Below, piece after piece: positions 1,746-20,030 of a stretch of 34,867 bases of DNA. This stretch comes from a virus. Lineage: Duplodnaviria > Heunggongvirae > Uroviricota > Caudoviricetes. Each line of letters begins with the position of its first letter. The first letter of the stretch is position 1. The stretch is taken from IMG/VR virus record IMGVR_UViG_2684622580_000006. One strand, written 5' to 3'. The notes under the pieces were generated by a model. The model saw only the letters and a list, made by a program, of their open reading frames with translations, searched no databases and was not told where the DNA came from. Made by a program: the position numbers and the translations under genes.

Positions 1746-1790
1746 AATTGATACTCTCTGCTAAGTGATTGAAAGGATTAGATTATGCAA
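1715..1790. other. Candidate attL / host-prophage junction overlapping the 5' end of ybiT
   Basis: Abrupt GC-rich to AT-rich transition around 1720-1745; only 39 bp separate the ybiT start from the serine recombinase start; small palindrome ttgctaagaagcaa (1731-1744) and a second tgctaag at 1760-1766. Confidence 0.3.
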
Positions 1791-3290
1791 AAGCAAAACG
1801 GGTTAGCTTACTCATACATACGATTTTCGAGCAAGAAACAAGAACAAGGGGACTCAGTAAGACGACAGACTGAACTTGCTGAAAAATACGCTTCATCGAA
1901 CAATCTTACACTATCTGAAAAGAACTTTCAGGATCTGGGGATCTCAGCGTTCAAAGAAGGAAACAGACCTTCACTCGGTGACATGCTTTCTGCTATCGAG
2001 CAAGGAGCAATCGAATCAGGCAGCACGATAATCATCGAATCACTTGATCGCTTGAGTCGTCGGGGTATCGATGTGACTCAACAGATAATCAAGTCAATCT
2101 TACAACACAACGTCTTTATAGCGAGCCTGACAGACGGTCTGTTACTCAATAGAGAATCAGTTAACGACCTTGTAAGCGTGATTAGAATCGCTCTGGCTGC
2201 TGACCTTGCGCATAAAGAATCGGAGAAGAAATCACAGCGTTTGCGTGAGACAAAACAGCAACAAAGAAAAGCTGCTCTTGAGGGTAAAGTAATCAACAAA
2301 ATACTGCCTTTCTGGTTATCAAGAGAAAAAGACCAGTTTGTTTTCTCTGACAGATTTGACGCAGTGAAAAGAATTATCGAACTAAAGAAAAAGGGACTTG
2401 GGACAAATAAAATAGCTAAGACATTAAACGATGAAGGATTTAAACCATTGCGTTCTGCTGGCTGGAATCATACAACTGTTGGTAAAACTCTAAGTTCAGT
2501 TGCTTTATACGGTGCTTATCAAACATCAGAAACGACGAAAGATAGAAAAGTTATTCTGTTGGATATTATCGATAATTATTATCCAGCAGTAATTAGCAAA
2601 GAAGATTGGATGTTATTACAATCAGACGCAAAGCAGAATAAACCGGGGTATAAGTCAGACAAAAATGCTTTCACAGGGTTATTAAAGCACTCTTGCGGAG
2701 GTGCGTTAGTCAGAAAATTCCATGTTGTTACTGGTAAAACGTATCAATACCATGTTTGTGCTAATGCTCGCGATGGTAAATGCACCGTTACGCAGAATTT
2801 TAAAAACATGGAGATTGCTCTTTATAAAATCTTAAAGCACTTAAAGATGGAGAAGAAAACCTCTGTTGATGCGACAATTGCACAAGAACGCGCTCAATTA
2901 AAAGAGCAAATCGACAACTTGAACGGAATGCTTCTAACAATGAAAAAAGTTCCTATGAGTGTTCTTGAGACAATCGGCAATCTTGAGGAAAAGTTACAGG
3001 AACTCGACCAGCAGTTTAAACAACAATCTGATATGGTATTAGCTGAACAATCAGTCGATTTCAACCTCCTGTCGGAAATCAAAGATCCTATCGAATTAAA
3101 CATGATGCTTAAACGAGTTATAAAAGAAATCACGGTATTTAATCTTAAAAAATCTTGGCGAATAAAAGTTCAGTATCTGAATGGTCATTCTCAGAGTTTC
3201 CGATGGGATGGATATAGTATGAGTTTTGTTTCTGACAGCAAAAAACTACTGGAATACATGAACGCTGAGAAAGAGCAATTGGATAACTAA
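1785..3290 (+). CDS. Large serine recombinase (phage integrase, serine type)
   Basis: N-terminal resolvase-like catalytic domain with the serine motif AYSYIRFSSKKQ...RQ; Cys cluster HSCGG...YHVCANARDGKC (zinc ribbon) and C-terminal coiled coil typical of large serine integrases; sits at the element boundary. Confidence 0.85.
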   Translation: MQKQNGLAYSYIRFSSKKQEQGDSVRRQTELAEKYASSNNLTLSEKNFQDLGISAFKEGNRPSLGDMLSAIEQGAIESGSTIIIESLDRLSRRGIDVTQQIIKSILQHNVFIASLTDGLLLNRESVNDLVSVIRIALAADLAHKESEKKSQRLRETKQQQRKAALEGKVINKILPFWLSREKDQFVFSDRFDAVKRIIELKKKGLGTNKIAKTLNDEGFKPLRSAGWNHTTVGKTLSSVALYGAYQTSETTKDRKVILLDIIDNYYPAVISKEDWMLLQSDAKQNKPGYKSDKNAFTGLLKHSCGGALVRKFHVVTGKTYQYHVCANARDGKCTVTQNFKNMEIALYKILKHLKMEKKTSVDATIAQERAQLKEQIDNLNGMLLTMKKVPMSVLETIGNLEEKLQELDQQFKQQSDMVLAEQSVDFNLLSEIKDPIELNMMLKRVIKEITVFNLKKSWRIKVQYLNGHSQSFRWDGYSMSFVSDSKKLLEYMNAEKEQLDN

Positions 3291-3399
3291 CTACAACCAT
3301 AAATGTAACAATACGTATTGCATTTAACTAAATGTTAACCACATTAATATTTTACGTAGCATCCTTGACAAGCTAACATAAGAAAAAATCAGAACTTCG

Positions 3400-3408
3400 T
3401 GTTTTAAT
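3400..3408 (+). promoter_or_regulatory. Possible extended -10 promoter (TGtTTTAAT) for the 3449 gene
   Basis: TGnTTTAAT about 40 nt upstream of the ATG; AAGGAA Shine-Dalgarno precedes the start; a TTGACA hexamer at 3365-3370 is badly spaced. Confidence 0.25.
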
Positions 3409-3448
3409 CTATTGAGTTTCTTACTCATTAACTTCAAAAGGAATCGAA

Positions 3449-4186
3449 ATGAAATTACCAATTGTTGATGTATTTGAGAACCCATACGAATCCTGGACCT
3501 ACAGAAATGCCAGTCAGGAAGAAATGATGGCTGTCTACAGGGCTACTGGCAAATTTGAAACTCATATCAAAGATAAACTGATTGCAAAAATTAAAAATCA
3601 TTTAGATGCAGCAAAACACATGGCAAAAAGAGGTTCGGATAATGGATTAGAGAATTTCATTGACCGATATCTTGACAATAGCGTCAATTATAAAGAACTA
3701 AGACGCGCTATGCCTTCAAAAACTCCAAAAGTGTTATTTGACTATCAACAAAAATATCCTAATTACTCAGTAACCGAGGTGGATAAAGAAATCAATAGCA
3801 TCGGTCATACACTAAGCGAAGGTCAATATCTTTTTCATGGTGGTGCATGGGTAAATGGAGCATCAAATCAATTCAAATTAACAGCACCACTTTCAACAAG
3901 TTTTTGTCCTCAAGTTGCATTAAGAAATGCTGAATGGAGAGGGAAAGCATATGATAACAATAAAATAGAGTTATTTGTATTACATACAGTGAATCCTATC
4001 ACTAATGTTTTTGCTTTTCCTAGAAAGAATGCAAGTATGGGAAATGAAAAAGAGATTCTTTTTGCATCAGGGGCGACCCTGATTAGGCGAGCCACTCATT
4101 TAATACGTGATGACTATCCGGCTGGAAAATATGAACATAAGGATAAAAAAATCCCAATCTATGTAGTAGAAGTTGACATTTCATAA
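3449..4186 (+). CDS. Hypothetical protein (cargo gene next to the integrase); weak STS...ExE pattern
   Basis: 245 aa ORF with a good SD; contains PLSTSF and NEKEILF spaced as in R-S-E ADP-ribosyltransferases, but the Arg motif is not convincing (FHGG instead). Confidence 0.6.
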   Translation: MKLPIVDVFENPYESWTYRNASQEEMMAVYRATGKFETHIKDKLIAKIKNHLDAAKHMAKRGSDNGLENFIDRYLDNSVNYKELRRAMPSKTPKVLFDYQQKYPNYSVTEVDKEINSIGHTLSEGQYLFHGGAWVNGASNQFKLTAPLSTSFCPQVALRNAEWRGKAYDNNKIELFVLHTVNPITNVFAFPRKNASMGNEKEILFASGATLIRRATHLIRDDYPAGKYEHKDKKIPIYVVEVDIS

Positions 4187-4197
4187 TACAATTCATG

Positions 4198-4220
4198 AGG
4201 GAGTTGTTGCTCCCTTATTT
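4198..4220. terminator. Bidirectional intrinsic terminator between convergent genes
   Basis: agggag-ttgttg-ctccct hairpin followed by tatttt; lies between the stop at 4186 (+) and the stop at 4215 (-). Confidence 0.5.
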
Positions 4221-4862
4221 TACGCTCGTCCACTTAGATTCTGAGTTCCATTTACCGATTCGAGAAAAAAACGTATCTTGTTCATTTCCTTTATAACTAC
4301 GATGAACACCATCAGAAGCGTGATTTCTTGCCGATTTCTCAAGAACCTCCCAGATTGAGTTCATAACAGCTTCGGTTTCGTTTTTAGATTCATTATCATC
4401 GTATTCGATATTAACTGTTAATTTATCCATAGAACCAGTAAACAGATTAAAACTCTCTGTTAGACTGCCAGTATTCGGATTCAGAAAACAAATATCAATT
4501 TTAACGTCTGCTCTGTTCAAAGCTTTTGTTCGAATCAAGTTAATATATTCTTTTCGGATATTAGCCAGCTTAACGGTCATACCGATGTTGCTAATTTCTT
4601 TTTCTTCGCTGATTGAACTGATATCAGTAAAGTCACCAGCGGCAATATAATTTTTACCTTGATATTGCAAGTCGTAATAAGCATCAGTTAACAACAGTTC
4701 TGCGCCGTTATGCATCTTAATCTGAACAAGATGAAACAACGTGCCAACACTGAACAACTGACCAGTAGTCAGTTCAGTATAAGCAGTGCCGTTAAAATCG
4801 TTATACGCTTCGATGAAGTCGGGGTCTTTTCTCAGTCTGTTAAATTGGTCTTTTACTGACAT
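4215..4862 (-). CDS. Hypothetical protein (second gene of a minus-strand pair)
   Basis: 215 aa ORF; start overlaps the upstream gene stop by 1 nt (translational coupling); no motif I recognise. Confidence 0.6.
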   Translation of the reverse strand: MSVKDQFNRLRKDPDFIEAYNDFNGTAYTELTTGQLFSVGTLFHLVQIKMHNGAELLLTDAYYDLQYQGKNYIAAGDFTDISSISEEKEISNIGMTVKLANIRKEYINLIRTKALNRADVKIDICFLNPNTGSLTESFNLFTGSMDKLTVNIEYDDNESKNETEAVMNSIWEVLEKSARNHASDGVHRSYKGNEQDTFFSRIGKWNSESKWTSVK

Positions 4863-5437
4863 TACACCACCTCTGTTGCAGTGAGTTTAATATTTGAAAT
4901 TGATGCTAAGTCTAACGGGATAGTATCGTTCGTTAGGATGAATCGTCCTTTTGTTCCTCTGTAACTGACAGTTTCACCAGCTTGAACGTTCTGCAACAGA
5001 TTCGGAAATAGTTTCATCTCTCCACCTGCTTTGACATCCTCCGTCACGGTGTACAGCTTGGAGTGATTCTGAAACTGAACAAGTGCTCCCGCTTCTAAAG
5101 TATCTGCAAAGCTGTTCAGAGTGACCTTACGCGCTCCTTTGTTAGCTGTAACAGATGCTTGGATAAGTCCCTGAGCCGAGCCTTTATAGTCAGTCAAGTA
5201 GCTTAACGGAAAGTCAAACGGTTGACCTTGTTGATGCATCGCGATAAAGCGTTGAACGTGTCTTGTGTCCTGCGACATATAATTCACAGTGAAATTCAAT
5301 TCGAAATATTGAACGCCTGTATAACGTTTCTGAAAACGTCCTGATACTGCTCTGTTAGAGAAAAACGGAGCATTTGATTTAAGCTGAACATCGGTCAGCC
5401 TAACGTCTGTGTCTAATAGATTCATAAGTCCTCTCAT
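4862..5437 (-). CDS. Hypothetical protein (first gene of a minus-strand pair; start may be the internal Met at 5425)
   Basis: 191 aa ORF; AGAGGA precedes the ATG of MNLLDTD at 5425, whereas the ATG at 5437 has no SD. Confidence 0.6.
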   Translation of the reverse strand: MRGLMNLLDTDVRLTDVQLKSNAPFFSNRAVSGRFQKRYTGVQYFELNFTVNYMSQDTRHVQRFIAMHQQGQPFDFPLSYLTDYKGSAQGLIQASVTANKGARKVTLNSFADTLEAGALVQFQNHSKLYTVTEDVKAGGEMKLFPNLLQNVQAGETVSYRGTKGRFILTNDTIPLDLASISNIKLTATEVV

Positions 5438-5470: not shown

Positions 5471-5956
5471 ATGGAACTAAACGCAATGCTTCGTTATGAC
5501 GAAGGCGAAAAACTCACGATGTATAAAGACACAGAAGGATATTTCACAATCGGTGTCGGACACTTGATTACAAAAAATCCATCAAGAGACTACGCTTTGA
5601 AAGAACTTGATAAAGCTGTTGGTCATCCTTGTTATGGATATATCACAGCGAAAAAATCTGATCAGTTACTGAATATTGATGTTAACTCAACTCTGCGTCA
5701 GCTTAGTAAAACAGAACTGCATCCAGCTTATATCAGAATCGATACAGCCAGGCGTTCAGCGTTAATCAATATGTGTTTTCAACTCGGCGTTTCTGGCGTA
5801 TGTCAGTTCAAGAAATTCTTGGGATACATGGCTGTTGGAGATTATCAAAATGCGGCTGATGAAGCTTTAGACTCAAGATGGGCACGTCAGACTCCTAATA
5901 GAGCAAAACGTGTAACTGATGTTATTAGATATGGCGATTTCAGAAGTTATAATTAA
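5471..5956 (+). CDS. T4-type lysozyme (endolysin, glycoside hydrolase family 24)
   Basis: 161 aa; N-terminus MLRYDEGEKLTMYKDTEGYFTIGVGH aligns to T4 lysozyme [26 protein letters not shown] with catalytic E11, D20, T26 conserved; C-terminal RWARQTPNRAKRV also matches. Confidence 0.9.
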   Translation: MELNAMLRYDEGEKLTMYKDTEGYFTIGVGHLITKNPSRDYALKELDKAVGHPCYGYITAKKSDQLLNIDVNSTLRQLSKTELHPAYIRIDTARRSALINMCFQLGVSGVCQFKKFLGYMAVGDYQNAADEALDSRWARQTPNRAKRVTDVIRYGDFRSYN

Positions 5957-6000: not shown

Positions 6001-6038
6001 GACTAAGCAGATATGTAATTAACACCATCAGCTTAGTC
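6001..6038. promoter_or_regulatory. Operator-like inverted repeat GACTAAGC-N22-GCTTAGTC just upstream of the -10 element
   Basis: Perfect 8-bp inverted repeat at 6001-6008 and 6031-6038; a third half-site GACTAAGCA at 6248-6256 in the leader. Confidence 0.35.
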
Positions 6039-6049
6039 TACATATAGCT

Positions 6050-6058
6050 TGTTATAAT
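6050..6058 (+). promoter_or_regulatory. Extended -10 sigma70-type promoter (TGtTATAAT)
   Basis: Perfect TATAAT at 6053-6058 preceded by TG at 6050-6051; about 250 nt upstream of the 6310 ORF. Confidence 0.45.
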
Positions 6059-6309
6059 TTTTTACGACTCAACGAAGTCTTGTTAGGATAATGTAAACAA
6101 ATCCGTTTTTTTAGATGTGAGTAATATTAGCAATGTTCATCTTAGAATGTGATATCGAAGGAAACTCGAAAATGATAATAGCTTTACACTATTGAGAAAA
6201 TTTGGTTGAGGCTTCAAAATAGAGCATTCATACGTGATCAATAGCCAGACTAAGCAAGCAACAGCTAAACCCCGTAACGTACTGATTAAATTGATAATTG
6301 AAGGTGCAT

Positions 6310-6597
6310 ATGTTAAAAGTTACTGGTCTTGATAAGCTTCAGAAAGAACTCAAGGATGCAAAGCGTATACTGAGTGAGCTGGATGGCGAGCTAGGAGTCG
6401 TAAAGTTTAACCCTAACGACCCTGCTAGCATCGAGTCGGCAATTCAAACAGTTAATCACATGATTGATGAACGCATTGGCGGATGTTCAACCAACTCCAT
6501 AGTCGGCTCGCTTGCGCAGCAGATGAAGGAAACATACAGAGAAGGCATTCTTAAAAAAGCTGCCGAAGCCAGATTGACTTCAAGTGAGGATGAGTAA
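6310..6597 (+). CDS. Small protein (95 aa), first gene of a two-gene cargo operon
   Basis: ATG at 6310 preceded by GAAGGTG; the track ORF starts at TTG 6298; stop overlaps the next ATG by 1 nt (TAATG). Confidence 0.6.
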   Translation: MLKVTGLDKLQKELKDAKRILSELDGELGVVKFNPNDPASIESAIQTVNHMIDERIGGCSTNSIVGSLAQQMKETYREGILKKAAEARLTSSEDE

Positions 6598-7493
6598 TGG
6601 CTCAAGATATTTTTTCTGAAATGAACAATGCTGTTCTGGATTTACAGGCTTCACAATACCAGACCTTTGAACGTCCACTCAAAAAGCTTGCTCAGCTTCT
6701 AAAACATTCCGATCTTGAATCATACAATGCAGACCTGACTGAAGGACTCAATCTTACAGAGTTTCTCGCAGAAAGTGAGAAGACTGGAGGAAGTATGGCT
6801 GGGAGTGCCCAGCTTGTCTGGCCAGATGATGCAAGAAAAACACTAGGCCTTACATTACTTTTGATTTTTAAGTTAGCAGAAGATCCTAATTATGCAATCA
6901 ACTTTGGACATCATTTTTTCTATTCCGGAAGTAAAGTTATAGCAGGCATTCATTCGATTACAGGACAACTTATCATTCCTTTCGTTAGAGATTACAAAAA
7001 TTATGTTCAGTCTAAGGGAAGCACAGAAACTATGTTGAAGCCGCAGTTTTCGAACAAAGTTTTCATTGTTCATGGTCATGATGATGGCGCCCGTGAAACA
7101 GTCGCAAGGTTTCTTGAACGTATAGGTTTAGAAGCAATCATATTACATGAGCAAGCTAATCAGGGACGAACTGTCATTGAGAAAGTTATAGCAAATAGTG
7201 ATGTTGGATTTGCTGTTGTATTGCTAACACCAGATGATGAAGGTTGTGCTAAAGGAGGAATACCAGAACCAAGGGCAAGGCAGAATGTAATGCTAGAATT
7301 AGGATATTTTATCGGGCGTTTAGGCAGAGAGAAAGTATGTGCACTAAAACGCGGCTCACTAGATATTCCAAGTGATTTTGCTGGGGTTGTTTGGGAAAAT
7401 ATGGATAGCAGTGGAGGCTGGAAGCAAGCACTCGCACGAGAACTTGAAGCTGCTGGTCACAATATTGATTGGAATAAAGCAATGCGGAGTTGA
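6597..7493 (+). CDS. Protein with a C-terminal TIR-like nucleotide-binding domain (COG4271 / PF10137-like); candidate defence effector
   Basis: C-terminal segment KVFIVHGHDDGARETVARFLERIGLEAIILHEQANQGRTVIEKVIANSDVGFAVVLLTPDDEG matches the consensus I remember for the 'predicted nucleotide-binding protein containing TIR-like domain' family; the N-terminal ~150 aa are unrecognised. Confidence 0.55.
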   Translation: MAQDIFSEMNNAVLDLQASQYQTFERPLKKLAQLLKHSDLESYNADLTEGLNLTEFLAESEKTGGSMAGSAQLVWPDDARKTLGLTLLLIFKLAEDPNYAINFGHHFFYSGSKVIAGIHSITGQLIIPFVRDYKNYVQSKGSTETMLKPQFSNKVFIVHGHDDGARETVARFLERIGLEAIILHEQANQGRTVIEKVIANSDVGFAVVLLTPDDEGCAKGGIPEPRARQNVMLELGYFIGRLGREKVCALKRGSLDIPSDFAGVVWENMDSSGGWKQALARELEAAGHNIDWNKAMRS

Positions 7494-7832
7494 TTTTATA
7501 TAGCTCCATTTTTAGCGATACTGGCGTTTCATCGACAATTAAAAATTTGGCTGCTGATTAGCCTAAAACGCAGCCAAATATAAATCATTAATGATATTGC
7601 TTAAATAAGTTTTAACGACTCATCTTCAGCGCCCCCCTCTAACAAAAAATAATAGTTACTCTGGGACTTCTGAAACACCGAGATGTTTCGAACGCTCAGC
7701 TTTTTTCTCGCGAGTGAAAATCCAAATCGTGTTCAGTTCATCATCGATAGACAGGAACTATCCCGAATTCCTCCCGCTGTAGAGATAAATACAGAGATAA
7801 ACCCTTATTCCCTCTACACTTGGAGATATTTA

Positions 7833-8372
7833 ATGGCTCGTAAAACTTATGTAAGCATGACTGAAATGGCTAAACGTTATGGTTATAGCCTCAACGCTAT
7901 CAAGAGCTGGCGTGCAGAAGGACTGCCCTACTCTGATAATCCTTCTGGTATTCCAGAAGACGAAGGCACTTTATGGATTGTTCAGAACAAAATTAACCCA
8001 ATGCGAAATATGTCCATCAAGGACGAATTCGAACGAGAAAAACTCCGTGAACAGGTGGCTAAAGCTGACTTGGCAACTTATGCAGCACAAGAAAAATCTG
8101 GTGAATTAATACCAGTGGATTATGTTCAAGCTGAGTTGAACCGTTTTTGTTCGCAACTGAAAGACAAAATCAGATTAATTCCGAAACAACACGCTTTGGA
8201 GATTCTTGAATCTGCCGTTTCAGTTGAAGAACTTCGTGATTGTCTGAAAGAGAAAATCGACCAGACGTTACGTGAGGTTGACAGTTTGTTTGAAGAACCT
8301 CAGTTACAGGACAATTCCTCAGACGAGTACAAAGAAAAGACAGAGAATGATACTGAGATTGACCTTGATTAA
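7833..8372 (+). CDS. Terminase small subunit (lambda Nu1-like)
   Basis: From the ATG at 7833 (GGAG 7 nt upstream) the product is 179 aa; N-terminal wHTH MTEMAKRYGYSLNAIKSWRAEGLPY resembles Nu1 LADIFGASIRTIQNWQEQGMPV; EREKLREQV resembles Nu1 ENEKLRREV; the track ORF is extended to 7683. Confidence 0.65.
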   Translation: MARKTYVSMTEMAKRYGYSLNAIKSWRAEGLPYSDNPSGIPEDEGTLWIVQNKINPMRNMSIKDEFEREKLREQVAKADLATYAAQEKSGELIPVDYVQAELNRFCSQLKDKIRLIPKQHALEILESAVSVEELRDCLKEKIDQTLREVDSLFEEPQLQDNSSDEYKEKTENDTEIDLD

Positions 8373-8387
8373 GGGAGCATCGCTCCC
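8373..8387. terminator. Stem-loop gggagc-atc-gctccc right after the terS stop
   Basis: 6-bp GC-rich stem immediately after the stop at 8370-8372; weak U-tract; same stem sequence as the hairpins at 4198, 13232 and 13505. Confidence 0.35.
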
Positions 8388-8600
8388 TTATCGCACAGCA
8401 CTTTTGAAGATCTGTTTCAGACGGTTGATAGAGACACGATCTGGTGAAAGATGTCGGATTTGTATACCACAATATTTCATTACATCATGATTACAAAGGA
8501 TTTGATGGCAGTTGTAATGCGATTCAACGCGATGCATCACCGTGTCCGTTCTTTTCAAAGAGCATTTGCAGTTTGCACACTGATGGTCAAATTTTGTCAT
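8388..8600 (-). CDS. Small Cys/His-rich protein (about 70 aa), possible zinc-binding
   Basis: Minus-strand ORF; ATG at 8600 preceded by GAGGAAG; TATAAATA on the minus strand at 8622-8629; product has QCANCKC and HYNCHQILCNH clusters. Confidence 0.4.
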   Translation of the reverse strand: MTKFDHQCANCKCSLKRTDTVMHRVESHYNCHQILCNHDVMKYCGIQIRHLSPDRVSINRLKQIFKSAVR

Positions 8601-8768
8601 AGATACTTCCTCTAAAACTGTATTTATACACTGTGCACAGTGATGATATATTACTATGCATGAACTTGATTTCATGCTTTATAAGTTTTATTGAGTCTCA
8701 CAAAATGATAGATTATCCTATGTGAATACAAACAGTTATAACCGACAGATTAATGGGTTGAGGACGTA

Positions 8769-9245
8769 ATGGACAATGAACTGAAAAAACTTATACACGC
8801 ATTCAGAAATGCTCTCGTTATGGCTGCGGATACACATTCATTTGGGTGTTTCAGTATGCCAAGATGGTCAGAGTTAAACAGTTTTCCACATGGTTGCTGT
8901 GACTTAGCAAGTAATTTTCTGGCTCAATATCTCACAGACTATGGATATGAGCCTGAAATAATTTGGTTTGAATGCTGCGAAGAACTAAACAAATATATCA
9001 AATCACACGTAGTTGTTAGGATTAACGATTACTATGTTGATTTAACACGAAATCAATTTGATGATCATAATGGAAGAGTATTGATTGAAGACAAATTCGG
9101 TTCCATTCCACGATTAATTAAACAAATAAAATCAATGAACTCAAATAATGTTGAGGATAGAAATATCAATATTAATACATTTAATTCAAGTGGGTATGAA
9201 CTCTACAGCTATATCAAAAAAATTGCGAATAATTTGATTAACTGA
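8769..9245 (+). CDS. Putative Cys-His-Asp fold protein (papain/transglutaminase-like), paralog 1
   Basis: 158 aa; Cys in FPHGCCDLASNFLAQYL, then SHVVVRINDYYVDLT; shares the H-x2-V-x-[VI]-x2-Y-x2-DL[ST] pattern with the next ORF; GAGGA SD; very AT-rich. Confidence 0.5.
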   Translation: MDNELKKLIHAFRNALVMAADTHSFGCFSMPRWSELNSFPHGCCDLASNFLAQYLTDYGYEPEIIWFECCEELNKYIKSHVVVRINDYYVDLTRNQFDDHNGRVLIEDKFGSIPRLIKQIKSMNSNNVEDRNININTFNSSGYELYSYIKKIANNLIN

Positions 9246-9341
9246 ATAAAATTATTTTAAAAAGGAAAAGAACCAGCATTGGAAATTTATTAAACATGTT
9301 GGTTTTATAATCGATAAAACAATCTGATTGGTGAGAATAAA

Positions 9342-9848
9342 ATGAATAATAATGAAATGAAGCAACAAATAAATGAATTGTCTTCTTATGTTCTGGACAA
9401 GACAATCAAAAAAGAGAAGGCATGTCTCTACATGAGTGCATATCTTTGCGCACTTATCAATGACAACATGAGAATAACCGCAAGATTGATTTCTGGGTCA
9501 CTTGTTATAAAAAACACTAAGATTTTCTCACATGAGCCTATACTGCCGATACTTACTTCGGGGAGCAATTATACCGGAGAATGGGATGGTCATGCTTGGG
9601 TTGAGGTCGCTGGATATATATGCGATTTATCAATCTTTTGTACAATTTTTTCAGAAAGTACATCAACTGAATTGCAGGATGTTTTCATGCAAACATTTGA
9701 TAGATACTATGAATTCTTAATCGCACCAAGAGAAAAACTAGAAGCAGCAGATATTTGCTATAAAGAATGCGAAGAATTAGGTAATGAACAAATAGATATT
9801 CTGATTCACTCAGGAATCAAATCAGGTATCTTAGTCAATCCAGAATGA
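9342..9848 (+). CDS. Putative transglutaminase-like cysteine peptidase fold protein, paralog 2
   Basis: 168 aa; KACLYMSAYLCAL (Cys), then GHAWVEVAGYICDLS, which matches the transglutaminase-like HAWxEV...D signature; stop overlaps the next start (ATGA). Confidence 0.5.
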   Translation: MNNNEMKQQINELSSYVLDKTIKKEKACLYMSAYLCALINDNMRITARLISGSLVIKNTKIFSHEPILPILTSGSNYTGEWDGHAWVEVAGYICDLSIFCTIFSESTSTELQDVFMQTFDRYYEFLIAPREKLEAADICYKECEELGNEQIDILIHSGIKSGILVNPE

Positions 9849-10567
9849 TTACAGAGGATAAAATGGAAGCAAACACTTTTATCGACCGTTTTTTTCATAG
9901 TTCTTATGAATTGACAGATTTTCGTCACGTTGGCGAACGAGACATTAACTCATTGTATACATTTCTGAATTTACTCCATTCTCTAAATGATCGTTTCAGC
10001 AAGGAATTTGGGATAGCTCAACTGGCCAAAAGGCCAGAGTTTAAATTATTACGTTTGATACGTAATTATTTTCAACATGTAGGGGATGTGGACGAATTCC
10101 GTCTATTTCAGACTCGTGATGCCATTTTGACTTCACATATGGAAATGATCATCATCCCAACAGCTTTAGTAGCTCGTGCCATCGAAAGTTTTCGAAACCA
10201 ACCACATAATAAGAAAGATCCAGTACGGGCTGAAAAAGAACTTTCATCCATTGCATCAGCTATCAGCGATTTTGAATATCTTTGTGATAATACGGATCTT
10301 TTTAGAGAAAACCCTCCTTTTCATGATACTGATAATACATATTTCTTAGGTTTTGACCTTTATAAATCCGTGTATAATATTACCAATATCGTAGCAGATA
10401 TATGCAGGAAAAGGGATGAATTTGCAATAAAAAAATGCGTTCAAGAGCTTGAAAAAGAATACACCGAAATGAATAACATACCAAAAGAAAATATATTATT
10501 ACTTGCGGGAAGTCCACCGCCACTACTAACAACCCAAGGTTTTGTGTTTCCTAAAAGGGATAGATAA
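9845..10567 (+). CDS. HEPN-motif protein (Abi-like putative RNase)
   Basis: 240 aa; contains LIRNYFQH, i.e. the R-[N]-x3-H (Rx4-6H) HEPN motif in its usual hydrophobic context; translationally coupled to the preceding gene. Confidence 0.45.
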   Translation: MITEDKMEANTFIDRFFHSSYELTDFRHVGERDINSLYTFLNLLHSLNDRFSKEFGIAQLAKRPEFKLLRLIRNYFQHVGDVDEFRLFQTRDAILTSHMEMIIIPTALVARAIESFRNQPHNKKDPVRAEKELSSIASAISDFEYLCDNTDLFRENPPFHDTDNTYFLGFDLYKSVYNITNIVADICRKRDEFAIKKCVQELEKEYTEMNNIPKENILLLAGSPPPLLTTQGFVFPKRDR

Positions 10568-10608
10568 ATTAAAGTAATTATAGTTCGTATAGATTTTCTT
10601 TTACCAAA

Positions 10609-10650
10609 TATTGTTGATTCGCTATTATACCTTAATAGCAATCAACAATT
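10609..10650. terminator. Imperfect 17-bp palindrome between convergent stops (bidirectional terminator or protein site)
   Basis: ttgttgatt(c)gctatta - tacct - taatagcaatcaacaa; lies exactly between the stops at 10567 (+) and 10656 (-). Confidence 0.4.
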
Positions 10651-10655
10651 GATTT

Positions 10656-11264
10656 TCATATTGCTTTGGTCGGCTTTGAAATTTCAATTTTCACAATTAA
10701 CAGTTCTTCGTCAAAAGATAACTTATTCCCCTTCATTACTTTTCTCATAACGCCGTTCTCATTTTCGAGAGCAGCGTTTTTTAGTTTTAAGGCTTCAATC
10801 TCCTTTCTCAATTCTTCCAATTCGTTGGTGATAACATCAACTTTCTGTTCAGTAGGAAATTCAATTTCTTCTTTAATCTCTACAAAACTCCCAACATATT
10901 GCTGAACAAAGTTATCGGTGTCTTTTTTGTGAATCATAGTCAAGTCTGAACCTAAAGCTTTCCAGTTACGACCTTCACAGCAAACGATCACAGCTTTTGT
11001 CATATCACTTGAATAAGCAACGATAGCAGGCTTGTCGTTCAGTTCTGACATACCGATTTGGAATTTACGCATATCTTTTACAGTCAACGCGTTTTCAACT
11101 TTGCTTAACATCTTTGCTCTGATGTTACGGTGAATCTCTGTAAAGCTACCGATAAAACTTTTCAGCTTGTTTCTGTTATTGGTCATTTCGTTAGTCTTAA
11201 CGATTTTTTTATTCAAGCTAACGTTAGTAGTCCCGTTCAAGTTTTCAAAGATTGAGAAATTCAT
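10656..11264 (-). CDS. Hypothetical protein with C-terminal coiled coil (possible regulator / antirepressor-like)
   Basis: 202 aa; C-terminal ELEELRKEIEALKLKNAALENE heptads; start overlaps the stop of the upstream small HTH ORF. Confidence 0.55.
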   Translation of the reverse strand: MNFSIFENLNGTTNVSLNKKIVKTNEMTNNRNKLKSFIGSFTEIHRNIRAKMLSKVENALTVKDMRKFQIGMSELNDKPAIVAYSSDMTKAVIVCCEGRNWKALGSDLTMIHKKDTDNFVQQYVGSFVEIKEEIEFPTEQKVDVITNELEELRKEIEALKLKNAALENENGVMRKVMKGNKLSFDEELLIVKIEISKPTKAI

Positions 11265-11428
11265 TATTTGATGTCCTTTTTAACAGGTTGAGTTCTGATA
11301 TTTCGTTTCTTGCAAGCGTTATATAGCGTTGCTTTGTTCATCTGTTTAGATTCTGCAATCTGCTGAAATGTCTCACCAGCATCTAGACGTGATTCGATTT
11401 CAAATTTGTTTGGAATAAACTTTGCCAT
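11264..11428 (-). CDS. Small HTH DNA-binding protein (54 aa), below the ORF-track size cutoff
   Basis: Hand translation MAKFIPNKFEIESRLDAGETFQQIAESKQMNKATLYNACKKRNIRTQPVKKDIK; resolvase/Hin-type HTH; stop overlaps the ATG of the 202-aa gene (TAATG). Confidence 0.5.
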   Translation of the reverse strand: MAKFIPNKFEIESRLDAGETFQQIAESKQMNKATLYNACKKRNIRTQPVKKDIK

Positions 11429-11451
11429 TTGGTTGCCTTTTTATGATGTTG

Positions 11452-11477
11452 AAAAAAGAGCGCTCTTGCGAGCGCTT
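11452..11477 (-). terminator. Intrinsic terminator oriented for minus-strand transcription
   Basis: Stem agcgctc / gagcgct with loop ttgc; plus-strand A-run at 11452-11457 gives a U-tract on the minus-strand RNA; sits in the leader of the HTH operon. Confidence 0.45.
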
Positions 11478-11491
11478 CAAACTTTAAGGAA
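11476..11491 (+). repeat. 16-bp direct repeat ttcaaactttaaggaa, copy 1
   Basis: Identical to 12404-12419; contains an AAGGA ribosome-binding site followed by a 7-codon micro-ORF. Confidence 0.6.
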
Positions 11492-12403
11492 TTTTTAAAT
11501 GAACTTATCGTTGTTCACATAGCTATTTTATATCGGCTATTCGATAGCGTAAACAAAGAGAGAAAACAACGAGGAGAAGAAACTCTCTATTGTTCTTCAT
11601 AGGGTATTTAGTGCCCTCACCGAAAGTGTAAGCAAAATTTTTAAAATAATTTGAAAGCAATCGGAGCAAACGTATCGATGCACTGATAAAACGCATCGAT
11701 AGCGCATCGATGCTTCTCGGCAAAGCGCATGGACCTTGAAGAAAATCGCCCTATAAGAACAATTGGATAAAGATGATATGGAAGGATATAGAAGCAGTAA
11801 ACACTACAAAACCAGATCTGAAAAACAGATTTCGCGAAGCGCGGGCGAAGCCCTAATTAATAACATTAGCGCGTAAGCGCGACAGATAGAAGTTAATCAA
11901 CATCGCTATGATCATAGATGTTGAACTTGATGATCAGTAATTATTACTAGATACGATTATTAGCGCTTCGCGCGTTCGCTACGCTCACAATATTGTTTTC
12001 TGATCATAATCAATAACTTCTAACTGCATTATAACCAGATCTGAAAACCTGATAAACTTAACTATCGTTAATTAAATCAGATAGCGTTAGTGAGTTCTCC
12101 ATCGCTTCGCTCAGTCGAACGGGCAAGCGCCGTCTTTGATAGAGATCTGGTCTTTATCGTTTTAGCTGACCTTATCGTCCCTCCTCGCTTCTCCCTGCTC
12201 TACTGACCATCTTGATACACCTTGTTCATCTATACCAGCCAAATTGAACCTGATGCACCCTGCTTTGATACCGACCTTGATTGTTGTCGCTTCGCCTGCG
12301 GCTCGCTTACCACCGTTATTGAATCGGACCAATAGAGATTCCTAGTTTACTAAATACAAGCGTGATTCAGAGAAACATCTGAAAGTCAACACTTCTATTC
12401 AAA
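11492..12403. other. About 0.9 kb non-coding, repeat-rich region (candidate ncRNA, iteron origin, or insertion remnant)
   Basis: No credible ORF; three GCATCGAT palindromes at 11676-11716; two aaccagatctgaaaa repeats (about 11810 and 12035); several CGCTTCGC-like motifs. Confidence 0.4.
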
Positions 12404-12419
12404 TTCAAACTTTAAGGAA
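12404..12419 (+). repeat. 16-bp direct repeat ttcaaactttaaggaa, copy 2 (RBS of the homing endonuclease gene)
   Basis: Identical to 11476-11491; immediately precedes the ATG at 12427. Confidence 0.6.
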
Positions 12420-12426
12420 ACTCAAA

Positions 12427-13041
12427 ATGTACAAAAGAACTATCAACAACGTAACTTACAAAACCCGTTCTGAACTGGATACTGAGCCAACCGGATTCAG
12501 CGTTTATAAAACCGTTTTCAGTATCAACAATGAATCATTCGTTTATTACGGCAAACAAGCTTTCAACGGTCAGCCTGATATGTCGTATATCGGTTCTGGT
12601 CGCAGAGTTCAGGAAAAACTCGCTGAAATGACCGAGTCAGATATCGTTTATAAAATCGTTCTACAGAATTTTGAATCAGAACAAGAAGCGTATGACTTCG
12701 AATCTGAATGCATTCAATCAGCACGCAAATCGAAGGTTAATATTTTAAATATATCTAAAGGAAACTCCGGTGGTAAGGTCTTTGACAAAATGACAGAAGA
12801 ACAAATTAAACAACGTAACGCGAAAATCTCTATGAGCATGATGGGTCACGAAGTCTCTGATGAAACTCGTCGTAAAATCTCAGAAGCGAAATCTGGTCAG
12901 ACTCGCTCTGATAATACGAAACAAAAAATCGGTGATGCTCTGCACGGTCGCAAAACTGGACCTAAATCAGAAGAAACCAAACGCAGAATGTCAGAAGCAC
13001 ATAAAGCACGTCACGCTAACAAGGAGACAGCGAATGTCTAA
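12427..13041 (+). CDS. GIY-YIG homing endonuclease with NUMOD3-like repeats (Seg / I-TevI-like)
   Basis: 204 aa; N-terminal GFSVYK...FVYYGKQ...YIGSGRR (GIY-YIG spacing) and C-terminal repeats HEVSDETRRKISEAKSG / SEETKRRMSEAHK typical of NUMOD3. Confidence 0.75.
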   Translation: MYKRTINNVTYKTRSELDTEPTGFSVYKTVFSINNESFVYYGKQAFNGQPDMSYIGSGRRVQEKLAEMTESDIVYKIVLQNFESEQEAYDFESECIQSARKSKVNILNISKGNSGGKVFDKMTEEQIKQRNAKISMSMMGHEVSDETRRKISEAKSGQTRSDNTKQKIGDALHGRKTGPKSEETKRRMSEAHKARHANKETANV

Positions 13042-13285
13042 AACTCAGCAGTTTCTAAGACCTGTTATCGTTGCGCTTGTTGTCGTAGGAGGTTGCGCTA
13101 TTGAATCGTGTAGCAGCACAGTATCAAAAGAATCGATTATAAAGCGTGACATCATATGCGCAAATCAGGAGTACAATCCTAAAACTGCAAAGCATGACAT
13201 TGAAATGTGCCGAAAGGGATTCAACAAAAAAGGGAGCATCAGCTCCCTTTTATCATTTAAATCCATGAACCAGCAGCTGCTCTAA
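13034..13285 (+). CDS. Small lipoprotein (83 aa), candidate superinfection-exclusion or spanin-like protein
   Basis: ATG at 13034 preceded by AAGGAG; signal peptide MSKTQQFLRPVIVALVVVGG followed by the lipobox Cys (VVGGC); the track ORF 12860-13285 is an artefactual upstream extension. Confidence 0.6.
   Translation: MSKTQQFLRPVIVALVVVGGCAIESCSSTVSKESIIKRDIICANQEYNPKTAKHDIEMCRKGFNKKGSISSLLSFKSMNQQLL
13226..13253. terminator. Bidirectional terminator hairpin gggagc-atca-gctccc embedded in the 3' end of the lipoprotein ORF
   Basis: 6-bp stem flanked by an A-run (13226-13231) and a T-run (13248-13251); for the minus strand it sits right after the stop of the 59-aa ORF. Confidence 0.45.
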
Positions 13286-13432
13286 TCTCTTCTCTAGCAA
13301 CTTGTTCGCTGAATCTTCGCTGAAGATGATTGATTGAACGTCACAGTCGGTTTTCAGTCTTAATGCTGCATCATCAACCGACATACGTTCGTTTTGTACA
13401 TCACCATTTTTGTAAATAACTTTAACAATCAT
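13253..13432 (-). CDS. Small protein (59 aa), convergent with and overlapping the 3' end of the lipoprotein gene
   Basis: Hand translation MIVKVIYKNGDVQNERMSVDDAALRLKTDCDVQSIIFSEDSANKLLEKRLEQLLVHGFK; AAGGAG 6 nt upstream of the ATG; terminator right after the stop. Confidence 0.4.
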   Translation of the reverse strand: MIVKVIYKNGDVQNERMSVDDAALRLKTDCDVQSIIFSEDSANKLLEKRLEQLLVHGFK

Positions 13433-13500
13433 GCTTGCTCCTTAGCATTGTTTGAAACATGATGATTTCACATTTCAACTTATATCTCAATCTACATACA

Positions 13501-13528
13501 GAAAATGGGAGCATTAGCTCCCATTTTT
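13501..13528. terminator. Intrinsic terminator downstream of the minus-strand HTH gene
   Basis: atgggagc-atta-gctcccat hairpin flanked by aaaa and ttttt. Confidence 0.5.
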
Positions 13529-13929
13529 CATTGTGAACCTCCATTTGTTTTATTGGTACAGCGTAAAAACTGATCGCGTATATACGCTTTTGATTTACCT
13601 GTCATTCGCTTACCGAATTCAATGAAATCTCCTTTCGTCTGACGATAAACAATCAAACTGATTTCAGAAGGTTTTTTGTGAGCACTATTTGATGCTAGCT
13701 GTTTTTCAATGTTCGGGATTTCTGATTCTTTAACTTCACCAGCTTCAATTTCAGAAGCAATAACTTCCTCTTCAACTGGCTTCACAGTGTATTTTTCAAT
13801 ATTTGCTTTAACGCGACGAACAACAGAGCGGGAAACTTCAAATTGTTCAGCAATCTTACGTTCTGATAAATCTGTTCCTGCGTTAATCATTGCAGCTATT
13901 TTATTTTCGATAGTCGGTTCAGTTTTCAA
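13528..13929 (-). CDS. HTH DNA-binding protein (133 aa), divergent from the large terminase gene
   Basis: N-terminal HTH AGTDLSERKIAEQFEVSRSVVRRV; TTG start with GGAG 8 nt upstream. Confidence 0.55.
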   Translation of the reverse strand: MKTEPTIENKIAAMINAGTDLSERKIAEQFEVSRSVVRRVKANIEKYTVKPVEEEVIASEIEAGEVKESEIPNIEKQLASNSAHKKPSEISLIVYRQTKGDFIEFGKRMTGKSKAYIRDQFLRCTNKTNGGSQ

Positions 13930-18053: not shown

Positions 18054-20030
18054 ATGCTAAAACTAAAACGCGATTTCGAAGCCCAAGAAATTAAAATTAC
18101 TGATGATAGTTATGAAATTGCGTTCTCAAGTGAAACTCCTGTTGAACGTCAAATTCTCGATAGTTACGGTCAACCAATAACAGTTAATGAAATTCTTTTG
18201 CATGACGGTCCTCAAAATGCTGACCTCGAGCGAATCAATAACGGCGCTGCTCTGTTGTTTAACCATAATTTCGACAATCATCTAGGCGTTGTAATTCCCG
18301 GGTCTGTAAGAATCGATAATGACCGTAAAGGTCGCGCTGTTGTTAAATTCAGTAAAGTTGGTCAATTAGCTAACGAAATTAAATCAAAAATCGACGAAGG
18401 AACAATTTCTAAAATTTCTTTCGGCTACGACATTATTGAATATGAACTCAAAGGAGACGACTTGTTAGTTTCTCGTTGGAGTCCGTATGAAATTTCTTTC
18501 GTTACTGTTCCTGCTGACGACAAAGTTGGCTTGGGAAGACTTCTAAATACAGATGACAAAACAATTAACGTTGAAGGAAAAAGAATGAATTTTGGTGAAA
18601 TCACTCTCGAAGAACTTCAAACACTTTCTCGCGAACAACTTGCGGAAATGAATGTTGAAGAAATTGAAGCGATGCCAGAAGAACTTCGTTTGAAGCGTGA
18701 AGAACTATTAGCGGAAGAAGCTGATATTCAGGATATCAAAGAAGAAGTTCAAGAAGCATCCGAAGAACAGACTGTTCCAGAAAAACAGGAACAAGAAGTA
18801 CAGAAAACCGAAGCTGAAATTGAGGCTGAAAAAGCTGCTGAAATGGAAGCGCTAAATAAAGAAAAAGAACGAGTTGAAGAAATCGAAGATATTTCGGTTC
18901 GATACAAAGTTCCTTACGAAAAAACGAAATCTGCTATTGAAGACAAAATGTCTGTTTCTGATTTCAAACGCTCTATTAAACCTAATAACGCTCCTACGGT
19001 GGTAAGAAAAATGACTAAAGATACTCAAATTGAACTTGAAAACAAATTTAATCTGGCTAACGCAATGCGCGCAATTGCTGACGGTAAAGCACTGACTGGT
19101 GCAGAAGCTGAATATACTCAAGAAATGATTTCTAAACGTCAGAAAGCTGGTCGCGGTATCGTTTCTAACGGTCTGTATCTGCCTCTGTCAGTTCTGAAAG
19201 GCAAACGCGCTATTAACACTGTCCCGACTGTTTCCGCGATTCAGCAAGTTGAACAGCGTTATGACAGCTTTGTTGAAATGCTGCTTGCTCCGACTGTTCT
19301 AGGTCGTATGGGTGTTAACTTCCTGACTGGTCTGAATACTCCGATTTCTGTGCCTAAGCAAACTGCTAGTTCTGTTGATGCTTTCGGTTTCGTTGATGAA
19401 AACGGTGCTTCTCCAGAAGGCGAAAGCAAATTTGCTAACGTTCAGTTCATGCCGAAAACATTTACTGGTGGTAACCCGATTTCTCGTCAAGCGATGCTGA
19501 CTATGCCGAATCTTGAACAGTTTATTTCTGATCATATCGTTAAGCACTCACGCGCTAAACTGGAAGCTCTGATTCTGGGTTCTGCAACTGACGCTAAAGC
19601 TCCTGAATCTCTGGACGCTCAATTGACCGCTACTTCTATGGGCATGACCTATAAAGAATTCGTTAAAGCTGCTGCTAAAGCGAAAGGTAAAGGCGTTGAC
19701 ATGGACAAGTTCATGTATCTGATGGATGCCGAAACTGAAGGTGATCTGAAAACCACTCTGCGTGACGCTGGTGTTGCAGGTTACATCGTAGGTGAAGACA
19801 ACAAACTGGGTGGACACGAAGTTGTTGGTTCCGGTCTGGTTAAAGATGGCACTATCTTTGCTGGTGATTTCTCTGCTCTGACTGTTGCTGAGTGGGAAGG
19901 TATCGGTATTGATATCGACGACACAACTTATCGTAACGCAGGCGCTATCGTTCCTCGTGTTTGGGCTGACATCGACTGGAAAGTTACTGCTGACGACCGT
20001 CTGTTTAAATACGTAAAAACGGGAGCTTAA
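18054..20030 (+). CDS. Fused prohead protease - scaffold (coiled coil) - HK97-fold major capsid protein
   Basis: N-terminus carries U35/HK97-protease-like motifs (NHNFDNHLG; ISFGYD; YEISFVTVPAD); a central acidic coiled coil (about residues 190-290); the C-terminal 350 aa look like an HK97-type capsid protein. Confidence 0.75.
   Translation: MLKLKRDFEAQEIKITDDSYEIAFSSETPVERQILDSYGQPITVNEILLHDGPQNADLERINNGAALLFNHNFDNHLGVVIPGSVRIDNDRKGRAVVKFSKVGQLANEIKSKIDEGTISKISFGYDIIEYELKGDDLLVSRWSPYEISFVTVPADDKVGLGRLLNTDDKTINVEGKRMNFGEITLEELQTLSREQLAEMNVEEIEAMPEELRLKREELLAEEADIQDIKEEVQEASEEQTVPEKQEQEVQKTEAEIEAEKAAEMEALNKEKERVEEIEDISVRYKVPYEKTKSAIEDKMSVSDFKRSIKPNNAPTVVRKMTKDTQIELENKFNLANAMRAIADGKALTGAEAEYTQEMISKRQKAGRGIVSNGLYLPLSVLKGKRAINTVPTVSAIQQVEQRYDSFVEMLLAPTVLGRMGVNFLTGLNTPISVPKQTASSVDAFGFVDENGASPEGESKFANVQFMPKTFTGGNPISRQAMLTMPNLEQFISDHIVKHSRAKLEALILGSATDAKAPESLDAQLTATSMGMTYKEFVKAAAKAKGKGVDMDKFMYLMDAETEGDLKTTLRDAGVAGYIVGEDNKLGGHEVVGSGLVKDGTIFAGDFSALTVAEWEGIGIDIDDTTYRNAGAIVPRVWADIDWKVTADDRLFKYVKTGA

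Follow-up and report, generated by a model that had tools for sequence, protein, structure and literature searches.

Two overlapping genes form a cargo unit in an Escherichia coli prophage

The virus record IMGVR_UViG_2684622580_000006 from IMG/VR, whose entire length of 34,867 nucleotides (nt) we refer to as the window, carries a two-gene cassette that encodes a small YuaX-family protein and a larger protein ending in a TIR-like domain. The two open reading frames (ORFs) lie on the + strand between a lysozyme gene (end at 5956) and a terS-like gene (start at 7683). The larger protein comprises 298 amino acids (aa) and is composed of an N-terminal domain (NTD) and the TIR-like domain. The locus has the following layout:

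6310..6597, + strand, yuaX-family gene encoding a 95-aa, three-helix protein, with an AAGGTG ribosome-binding site 5 nt upstream
6597..7493, + strand, NTD-TIR-like gene encoding 298 aa, its start overlapping the yuaX stop (TAATG)
6597..7031, + strand, conserved all-helical NTD (aa 1-145), absent from every profile library searched
7056..7406, + strand, PF10137 TIR-like domain (aa 154-270), predicted active site R228, N230, E234 and D260
7486..7515, + strand, terminator-like hairpin (7486-7507) plus T-run, overlapping the stop codon of the 298-aa gene

The mechanical start of the small ORF is the TTG at 6298; the conserved start, which is also the choice of the Prokaryotic Genome Annotation Pipeline (PGAP), is the ATG at 6310 and yields the 95-aa product. 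PGAP calls the same two genes, as WP_000922096.1 (95 aa) and WP_000046021.1 (298 aa, 'TIR domain-containing protein'). A Shine-Dalgarno sequence precedes each ORF, and the stop and start codons overlap at 6595-6599, with one base common to both ORFs. A first-pass annotation, made from the sequence alone, had described a two-gene operon with translational coupling through TAATG, and the two ORFs (6298/6310..6597 and 6597..7493) and their overlap bear out this description. Between the module's terminator-like hairpin and the terS-like gene stands a further hairpin, a strong one (7545-7579; 17-nt arms, 82% complementary, 1-nt loop), which may serve as a terminator or in packaging.

The pair is cargo in a low-GC prophage adjoining ybiT. 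The first part of the window is E. coli chromosome, with ybiT at 153-1745 on the minus strand, and the prophage is entered at ~1785 (GC content 38.8% vs 52.9% for ybiT). Its gene content starts with a large serine recombinase and also includes tail, lysozyme, terminase, portal, capsid and fibre genes.

The larger protein ends in a TIR-like domain with a predicted NADase site

The C-terminal part of the 298-aa protein matched the PF10137 profile over aa 154-270 (E=4.8e-38; 130.3 bits against a cut-off of 24.7; profile positions 1-118 of 119). In an AlphaFold2 (AF2) model, the TIR region reached predicted local distance difference test (pLDDT) values of 78-93, and its top Foldseek matches were TIR-STING (9lmq/7un8), SPARTA TIR-APAZ, TLR1, PdTIR and SARM1, at probability 1.0; DNPH1/Rcl and nucleoside 2-deoxyribosyltransferase-like proteins ranked lower. 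The first-pass annotation had proposed a PF10137-like, TIR-like domain in this product and had named a profile search and a structure comparison as checks, both of which thus confirm the domain; the peptide segments that it quoted are located at aa 156-167, 183-186 and 207-216.

When aligned to SfSTING with phmmer, residues R228, N230, E234 and D260 of the window protein correspond to R78, N80, E84 and D110. In the cryo-electron microscopy structure of SfSTING, R78 and N80 are phosphate/ribose ligands, E84 is the catalytic Glu, and D110 is donated by the dimer mate, completing the active site (PMC9402430). Each of the four positions is conserved in at least 95% of diverged family members. Because these four NADase-site residues of TIR-STING are kept, the TIR-like domain looks catalytically competent. 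By analogy with its relatives, its activity probably requires TIR-TIR packing, in which D260 is predicted to complete the active site of the neighbouring subunit. The predicted catalytic Glu is therefore E234 (codon 7296-7298), within RARQNVMLELG. The Glu of the LHEQ segment (E185), initially singled out as the residue to mutate, is conserved too, yet it does not align with the catalytic Glu of SfSTING and is probably not catalytic.

A constant helical N-terminal domain precedes interchangeable effectors

The NTD (~135-145 aa) gave no match in Pfam, NCBIfam, PADLOC or PHROGs, in keeping with its earlier description as an unrecognised half, and neither a PDB profile search nor a search of the BFVD viral folds returned a match. 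Pfam scans of 62 NTD members yielded noise only. The domain is all-helical, without similarity to STING, SAVED, CARF, SLOG, Macro or cyclic nucleotide monophosphate (cNMP)-binding domains, and is marked by a signature consisting of the loop GGSMxGSAxLxWP (G69, L73, W75, P76) and PFxRDY (R131). An 'RDYxxH' sequence in some homologues was considered as a HEPN Rx4-6H motif and rejected as not conserved, Tyr being the usual residue at the position.

With just the NTD as query, an exhaustive HMMER search recovered no more than 256 clusters at 50% identity. We surveyed the tails of 75 cluster representatives, each with at least 90 aa behind the NTD, and assigned domains with local hidden Markov models. 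A PF10137 TIR tail was found in 28 of the 75, a ~125-aa domain with a hydrophobic Gly/Ala-rich segment at its end in 17, and a ~110-aa domain with a C-terminal transmembrane helix in nine. At least four representatives carry a canonical TIR_2 tail, three of them clustering together and one (P0390) standing apart, and the remainder have Ymh or DUF4145 HEPN domains, tails with two transmembrane segments, or unknown domains. The effector behind the constant NTD is thus swappable, with TIR, HEPN and transmembrane modules occupying the same place.

YuaX is encoded next to, or fused to, the N-terminal domain

The 95-aa protein was assigned to Pfam family PF27363 via the precomputed annotation on 120 of the 120 homologues listed (down to 99% identity); the family is named 'YuaX' after the F-plasmid gene. 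Pfam scans detected no DNA-binding domain in YuaX. Homology between YuaX and the NTD was considered and rejected, hhalign finding them unrelated (0.9% probability).

A YuaX gene is positioned immediately upstream of the NTD gene, overlapping it by 1-17 nt or separated from it by no more than 25 nt, in Pseudomonas integrative and conjugative elements (ICEs), Vibrio and Serratia islands, IncF and Klebsiella plasmids, and metagenomes, and it is still found there in metagenomic contigs whose effector tail is DUF4145, TIR_2 or unknown. A genome scan, using one genome per species and a narrow YuaX alignment as query, yielded 27 YuaX loci. The NTD gene followed directly downstream in 21 of the 21 loci with a YuaX at least 55% identical, where the effectors comprised 19 TIR-like domains, one other and one truncated. 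In all paired YuaX-NTD loci, gene order and translational coupling are kept. YuaX homologues lacking an NTD neighbour were seen in Bosea, Falsiroseomonas, Sphingomonas, Rhodopila and an Acidobacteria metagenome-assembled genome (40-47% identity) and in Oxalobacter (65%) (L037-L042); one of them is followed by a ~540-aa RecB-like protein.

The linkage extends to single polypeptides. Three proteins (P0295, P0304, P0336) are natural single-chain fusions of YuaX, NTD and TIR, and many further proteins from the NTD search are YuaX+NTD chains or NTDs with other C-termini. An AF2 model of a YuaX+NTD concatenation reached a pLDDT of 92 and a predicted template modelling score (pTM) of 0.73. From the linkage, the fusions and this model, we infer that YuaX and the NTD interact physically.

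Compared with phage protein families, the similarities of YuaX were weak. Among 10 homologues, phrog_13883 was matched inconsistently, by four (E 0.03-0.13), and phrog_5 (Neck1) by one (E=0.0018). The first 21 residues (window 6310-6372) follow the motif h-h-K-h-x-G-L-D-x-L-x-x-x-L, which weakly resembles the start of tail-completion/Neck1 proteins.

The cassette is mobile and widespread

Aligned with the cassette in other hosts, the window is similar in nucleotide sequence from 6294-6310 up to 7486-7493. Between hosts, the cassette is 72-78% identical in nucleotides vs 83-85% in amino acids, and its GC content stays at 41-50% even where the host genome has 63-70%. The unit that moves among prophage, ICEs, islands and plasmids is exactly the two ORFs.

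A diverged version of the pair resides on ~996 plasmid records (IncF/Klebsiella), the classical F plasmid among them. On F (NC_002483 41216-42395; L045 11217-12396), the pair is oriented convergently to pifA/pifC, with ccdAB a few kb away, and encodes YuaX WP_000538310.1 and a 299-aa 'nucleotide-binding protein'. Gene architecture and domain order are those of the window pair, with 51% full-length identity between the large proteins and ~46% between the small ones; the F-plasmid pair differs in being a plasmid-borne, diverged subfamily, and is as uncharacterised as its counterpart in the window. With such a prototype on F, the view of the module as phage-specific or rare does not hold, and a widespread, uncharacterised YuaX/NTD-TIR unit fits the cassette better as a description than a phage-specific oddity.

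Elsewhere, the genes near the cassette are often defence genes and include those for PifA (E=1e-290), AriA/PtuA-like ATPases, HEC-04 and PDC-S15, as well as a ThsB-caspase-ThsB cluster and a SLATT protein. In two independent lineages, an insertion sequence (IS) has disrupted the effector gene and left yuaX intact: in E. coli PSS-15, IS2 is inserted between the NTD and TIR parts (L016 2248-4480), and on an O25b:H4 IncF plasmid, ISEc23 truncates the effector gene, with the loss of its last ~25 codons (L010 6275-7126).

The module differs from known TIR-based systems

No cyclase or other known signalling partner is present among the neighbouring window genes, as had been noted from the sequence, and no cyclase, CD-NTase or linked ThsB-type producer was found in the window or in ~35 loci examined. 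The ThsB and caspase genes of locus L003 are ~4.8 kb off, in a separate operon, and were seen in this one context only.

The closest comparison is to Cap12 (TIR-STING, TIR-SAVED) of the cyclic-oligonucleotide-based anti-phage signalling system (CBASS) and to PycTIR of Pycsar, which share the PF10137 family, the R-x-N-x3-E motif and the trans Asp with the window protein. Given this shared motif and trans Asp, oligomerisation-dependent depletion of nicotinamide adenine dinucleotide (NAD+) is the predicted output. Unlike Cap12 and PycTIR, the module has no STING, SAVED or cNMP-binding sensor and no cyclase; it has instead a helical NTD and a dedicated YuaX partner, and its TIR domain is C-terminal, not N-terminal. 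We considered and rejected membership in three systems. For CBASS, the NCBIfam Cap12 equivalogs scored 36 and 31 bits against a cut-off of 450, there is no cyclase, and the NTD is all-helical. For Pycsar, the PADLOC PycTIR profile matched aa 201-270 only (E=1e-8), and neither a cyclase nor a cNMP-binding domain was found. For Thoeris, there was no ThsB_TIR match, the 95-aa helical partner is often fused N-terminally, and the TIR domain sits in the swappable effector position. Assignment to any of the three fails because there is no cyclase and no nucleotide-binding sensor, and because the partner is not an effector.

The pair as a whole had no system-level match in PADLOC or NCBIfam. All five profiles of PADLOC PDC-S35, a single-gene phage defence candidate, match the C-terminal 160 aa of the window protein, which comprise the TIR-like domain and the terminal helices (E 1e-40 to 1e-71), a strong match (E~1e-70) aligning aa 136-295 with profile positions 115-277 of 278. 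In contrast to the single-gene PDC-S35, the module has a conserved second gene, and since the first ~70-115 profile positions are unmatched, its N-terminal domain is a different one.

In architectural logic, the NTD family is similar to abortive-infection (Abi) proteins of the AbiJ-NTD/AbiTii type, in which a ~140-aa, mostly helical N-terminal domain precedes HEPN (Ymh, DUF4145), TIR or other toxic C-termini and has been proposed to sense or to regulate (Anantharaman et al. 2013; PMC3710099). In both, one N-terminal domain stands before different toxic C-termini; the AbiJ-NTD-type systems, however, have been described without a YuaX-like partner. The Pfam AbiJ_NTD models, AbiJ-NTD1 and NTD2 excepted, gave no match at E<=0.5 among the 62 NTD members.

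A further comparison is CapRel(SJ46), in which a small antitoxin-like element, fused or adjacent to the toxin, reportedly doubles as phage sensor and releases the toxic domain. Folds and chemistry are unrelated, CapRel(SJ46) acting as a pyrophosphokinase on tRNA and the module having a putative TIR NADase, and direct sensing is hypothetical for the module. A search of the accessible literature returned no description of the YuaX/NTD-TIR pair, nor of a member with protection, toxicity or NADase activity. Together with the missing PADLOC and NCBIfam system, this agrees with the suggestion of the first-pass annotation that the pairing may be undescribed.

The upstream elements are local to the prophage lineage

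The spacer upstream of the pair holds three elements that are candidates for its control:

6001..6038, + strand, inverted repeat with 12-nt arms (6001-6012/6027-6038), holding two of three GACTAAGC copies; candidate operator
6050..6058, + strand, extended -10-like TGTTATAAT, read by eye, with no good -35; candidate promoter
6248..6255, + strand, remaining GACTAAGC copy, 55 nt before the start codon

The GACTAAGC octamer occurs three times in the 34.9-kb window (6001-6008, 6031-6038 on the minus strand, and 6248-6255), always inside the 350-nt spacer, with 0.77 expected for the whole window; these copies may be the operator for a prophage regulator. The candidate promoter TGTTATAAT, ~250 nt upstream of the first gene, was not reported by a consensus promoter scan, which found three sites vs 5.3 expected, not above chance. 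Across three prophage variants, conservation of the spacer is 97%, and the inverted repeat is largely kept in two sister prophages and absent upstream of the cassette in other hosts; the -10-like element is degraded to TGTGATAGT in strain PSS-15. Because none of these elements travels with the cassette to other hosts, they are local rather than part of the system, and may represent wiring of this prophage lineage, perhaps control by a prophage regulator. Accordingly, of the sigma70-type promoter and operator-like repeat initially attributed to the pair, the inverted repeat and an extended -10 read by eye are there, outside the conserved module, whereas the promoter scan lends the promoter no support above chance.

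The host prophage is rare and carries variable cargo

The prophage is rare within E. coli: 7 of 5,426 complete E. coli genomes carry it, and the module region is present in all seven. Searched against 50,697 phage records, the region gave zero megablast matches, and tblastn returned no match for YuaX and five for the larger protein, all partial and confined to the TIR half. The phage itself has no close relative among these 50,697 deposited genomes, the sole match being partial, 69% identical, to the 141-kb phage DCP80. Its layout at 1785-5437 is unusual, with the large serine recombinase directly adjoining ybiT and two tail/baseplate genes (DUF2163-like), on the opposite strand, coming before the lysozyme gene.

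Rfam and tRNA searches of the window found no RNA element, and PADLOC on the window genes at 3449-4186 and 7683-13929 had no match besides one homing-endonuclease model. A free-standing NUMOD3 homing-endonuclease-like gene is located at 12427-13041, in the cargo region upstream of terL, and a GntR-family gene at 13528-13929 on the minus strand. Four ORFs at 8769-11264 (158, 168 and 240 aa on the + strand, 202 aa on the - strand) have no Pfam, PHROG or PADLOC match. In a sister prophage (strains 2021CK-01361 and MS 115-1), whose module proteins are identical to those of the window, retron Ec67 lies just downstream of the module in place of these four ORFs (reverse transcriptase/endonuclease gene at L044 6459-8228). 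The module marks the lysozyme-to-terminase gene region as a probable defence hotspot of the prophage; the interval 8769-11264 looks like a variable defence hotspot, with the four ORFs as candidates.

Several hosts seem to hold a decaying copy of the prophage. In strain 2017.06.05CC, the prohead protease/capsid fusion gene, which the window has intact (18054-20030), is interrupted by an IS3-family element (L001 34092-35320), and in other carriers IS50R or IS3 is found close to the recombinase.

Discussion

Our analysis points to a mobile two-gene conflict module, namely a phage defence of the abortive-infection type that is able to act as a toxin-antitoxin (TA) or addiction cassette as well, in which YuaX and the NTD sense or regulate and the TIR-like domain is the toxic output. 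We hold this reading to be moderately probable. It is the best supported because of genomic context, natural fusions and effector swapping: a constant, sometimes fused YuaX/NTD unit that is combined with interchangeable toxic domains and carried by mobile elements among defence genes is the pattern of modular immune and abortive-infection systems. The PDC-S35 match of the TIR half and the two IS disruptions of the effector gene also count in its favour. The first-pass annotation had likewise proposed a candidate anti-phage or abortive-infection module, and these features of the wider family agree with its proposal.

We picture the mechanism as follows. At rest, a YuaX-NTD assembly would hold the TIR domains back from self-association. 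A phage-derived trigger, either a phage protein or the loss or titration of YuaX, would act on YuaX/NTD. The TIR domains could then pack, D260 of one subunit completing the neighbour's site formed by R228, N230 and the catalytic E234, and NAD+ would be hydrolysed, with arrest or death of the cell before the phage cycle is completed. In sister systems, the same YuaX/NTD unit would drive canonical TIR, HEPN RNase or membrane-inserting tails. Autoinhibition, trigger, oligomerisation-dependent NADase activity and anti-phage function are thus steps that we infer from the domain architecture and the relatives of the module.

Several observations weigh against this interpretation. An addiction role would account just as well for the presence of the cassette on plasmids, ICEs and prophages. 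Six YuaX homologues of the genome scan, five at 40-47% identity and that of Oxalobacter at 65%, have no NTD partner, so YuaX is not exclusively tied to the system and may serve other partners as well. The evidence for a YuaX-NTD contact consists of linked genes, fused proteins and a single AF2 model, built from an artificial concatenation, and in the full-length model pTM is only 0.44, with the YuaX part falling to pLDDT 54-83. Moreover, the neighbours inside the window itself give no known defence match.

The main rival, which is compatible with a defence role, is a plain type II TA or addiction cassette, in which YuaX would be the labile antitoxin and NTD-TIR the NADase toxin, stabilising the carrier element with defence as a side effect at most. 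A small upstream gene overlapping a larger toxin-like gene is the classic TA layout, the cassette is found almost exclusively on mobile elements, with the F copy near ccdAB and Klebsiella copies near vapBC, and the IS disruptions strike the putative toxin and spare yuaX. However, the natural YuaX-NTD-effector fusions argue against a simple labile antitoxin, as a single polypeptide misfits an antitoxin that must be separately degradable. YuaX also has no detected DNA-binding domain for autoregulation, and the swapping of TIR, HEPN and transmembrane domains behind a constant NTD, together with the defence-island neighbours, is more typical of immune sensors. On this evidence we rate a plain addiction cassette as rather unlikely.

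A bolder variant would make YuaX and the NTD a previously unrecognised, self-contained phage sensor for NADase, RNase and membrane effectors, perhaps detecting infection by molecular mimicry. Since the N-terminus of YuaX weakly resembles the Neck1 start, YuaX could be caught by virion parts under assembly or compete with them, thereby releasing the effector, and the F plasmid would then carry a second phage-exclusion system beside PifA. We regard this variant as improbable.

It is more doubtful still that the protein is an orphan effector whose NTD binds a cyclic nucleotide or ADP-ribose-derived signal from an unlinked CBASS, Pycsar or Thoeris, in the manner of Cap12 and PycTIR. The TIR half is indeed most similar to TIRs of the Cap12/PycTIR type, and the host strain MS 115-1 is known to carry a CBASS. 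Yet the partner that never changes is YuaX rather than a producer of signals, and no such producer was linked in the window or the ~35 loci; the all-helical NTD resembles none of the nucleotide-sensor domains listed above; and the Cap12 equivalogs stay far under their cut-off, so that we consider an orphan effector very unlikely. Equally far-fetched is a reverse Thoeris-like arrangement, in which the TIR-like protein makes a signal and YuaX responds, or a nucleoside/nucleotide hydrolase that, instead of killing the host, aids the mobile element, for example in counter-defence or nucleotide salvage: TIR domains can produce signals, and DNPH1/Rcl and nucleoside 2-deoxyribosyltransferase-like proteins are among the lower-ranked structural matches, but YuaX, which is soluble, helical and 95 aa long, lacks any enzymatic or membrane domain and is often joined to the N-terminal side of the NTD rather than found in the effector position, the TIR position is the one swapped for HEPN and transmembrane killing modules, and the conserved residues are those of the TIR-STING NADase site.

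If the defence and abortive-infection reading is validated, YuaX and the NTD would constitute a new sensor module for immune systems with TIR, HEPN and membrane effectors, and a function would be given to unannotated F-plasmid genes beside pifA that are also found on ~1,000 clinical IncF/Klebsiella plasmids. The cassette would, moreover, provide a compact, cyclase-free system of ~1.2 kb for studying how TIR NADases switch on.

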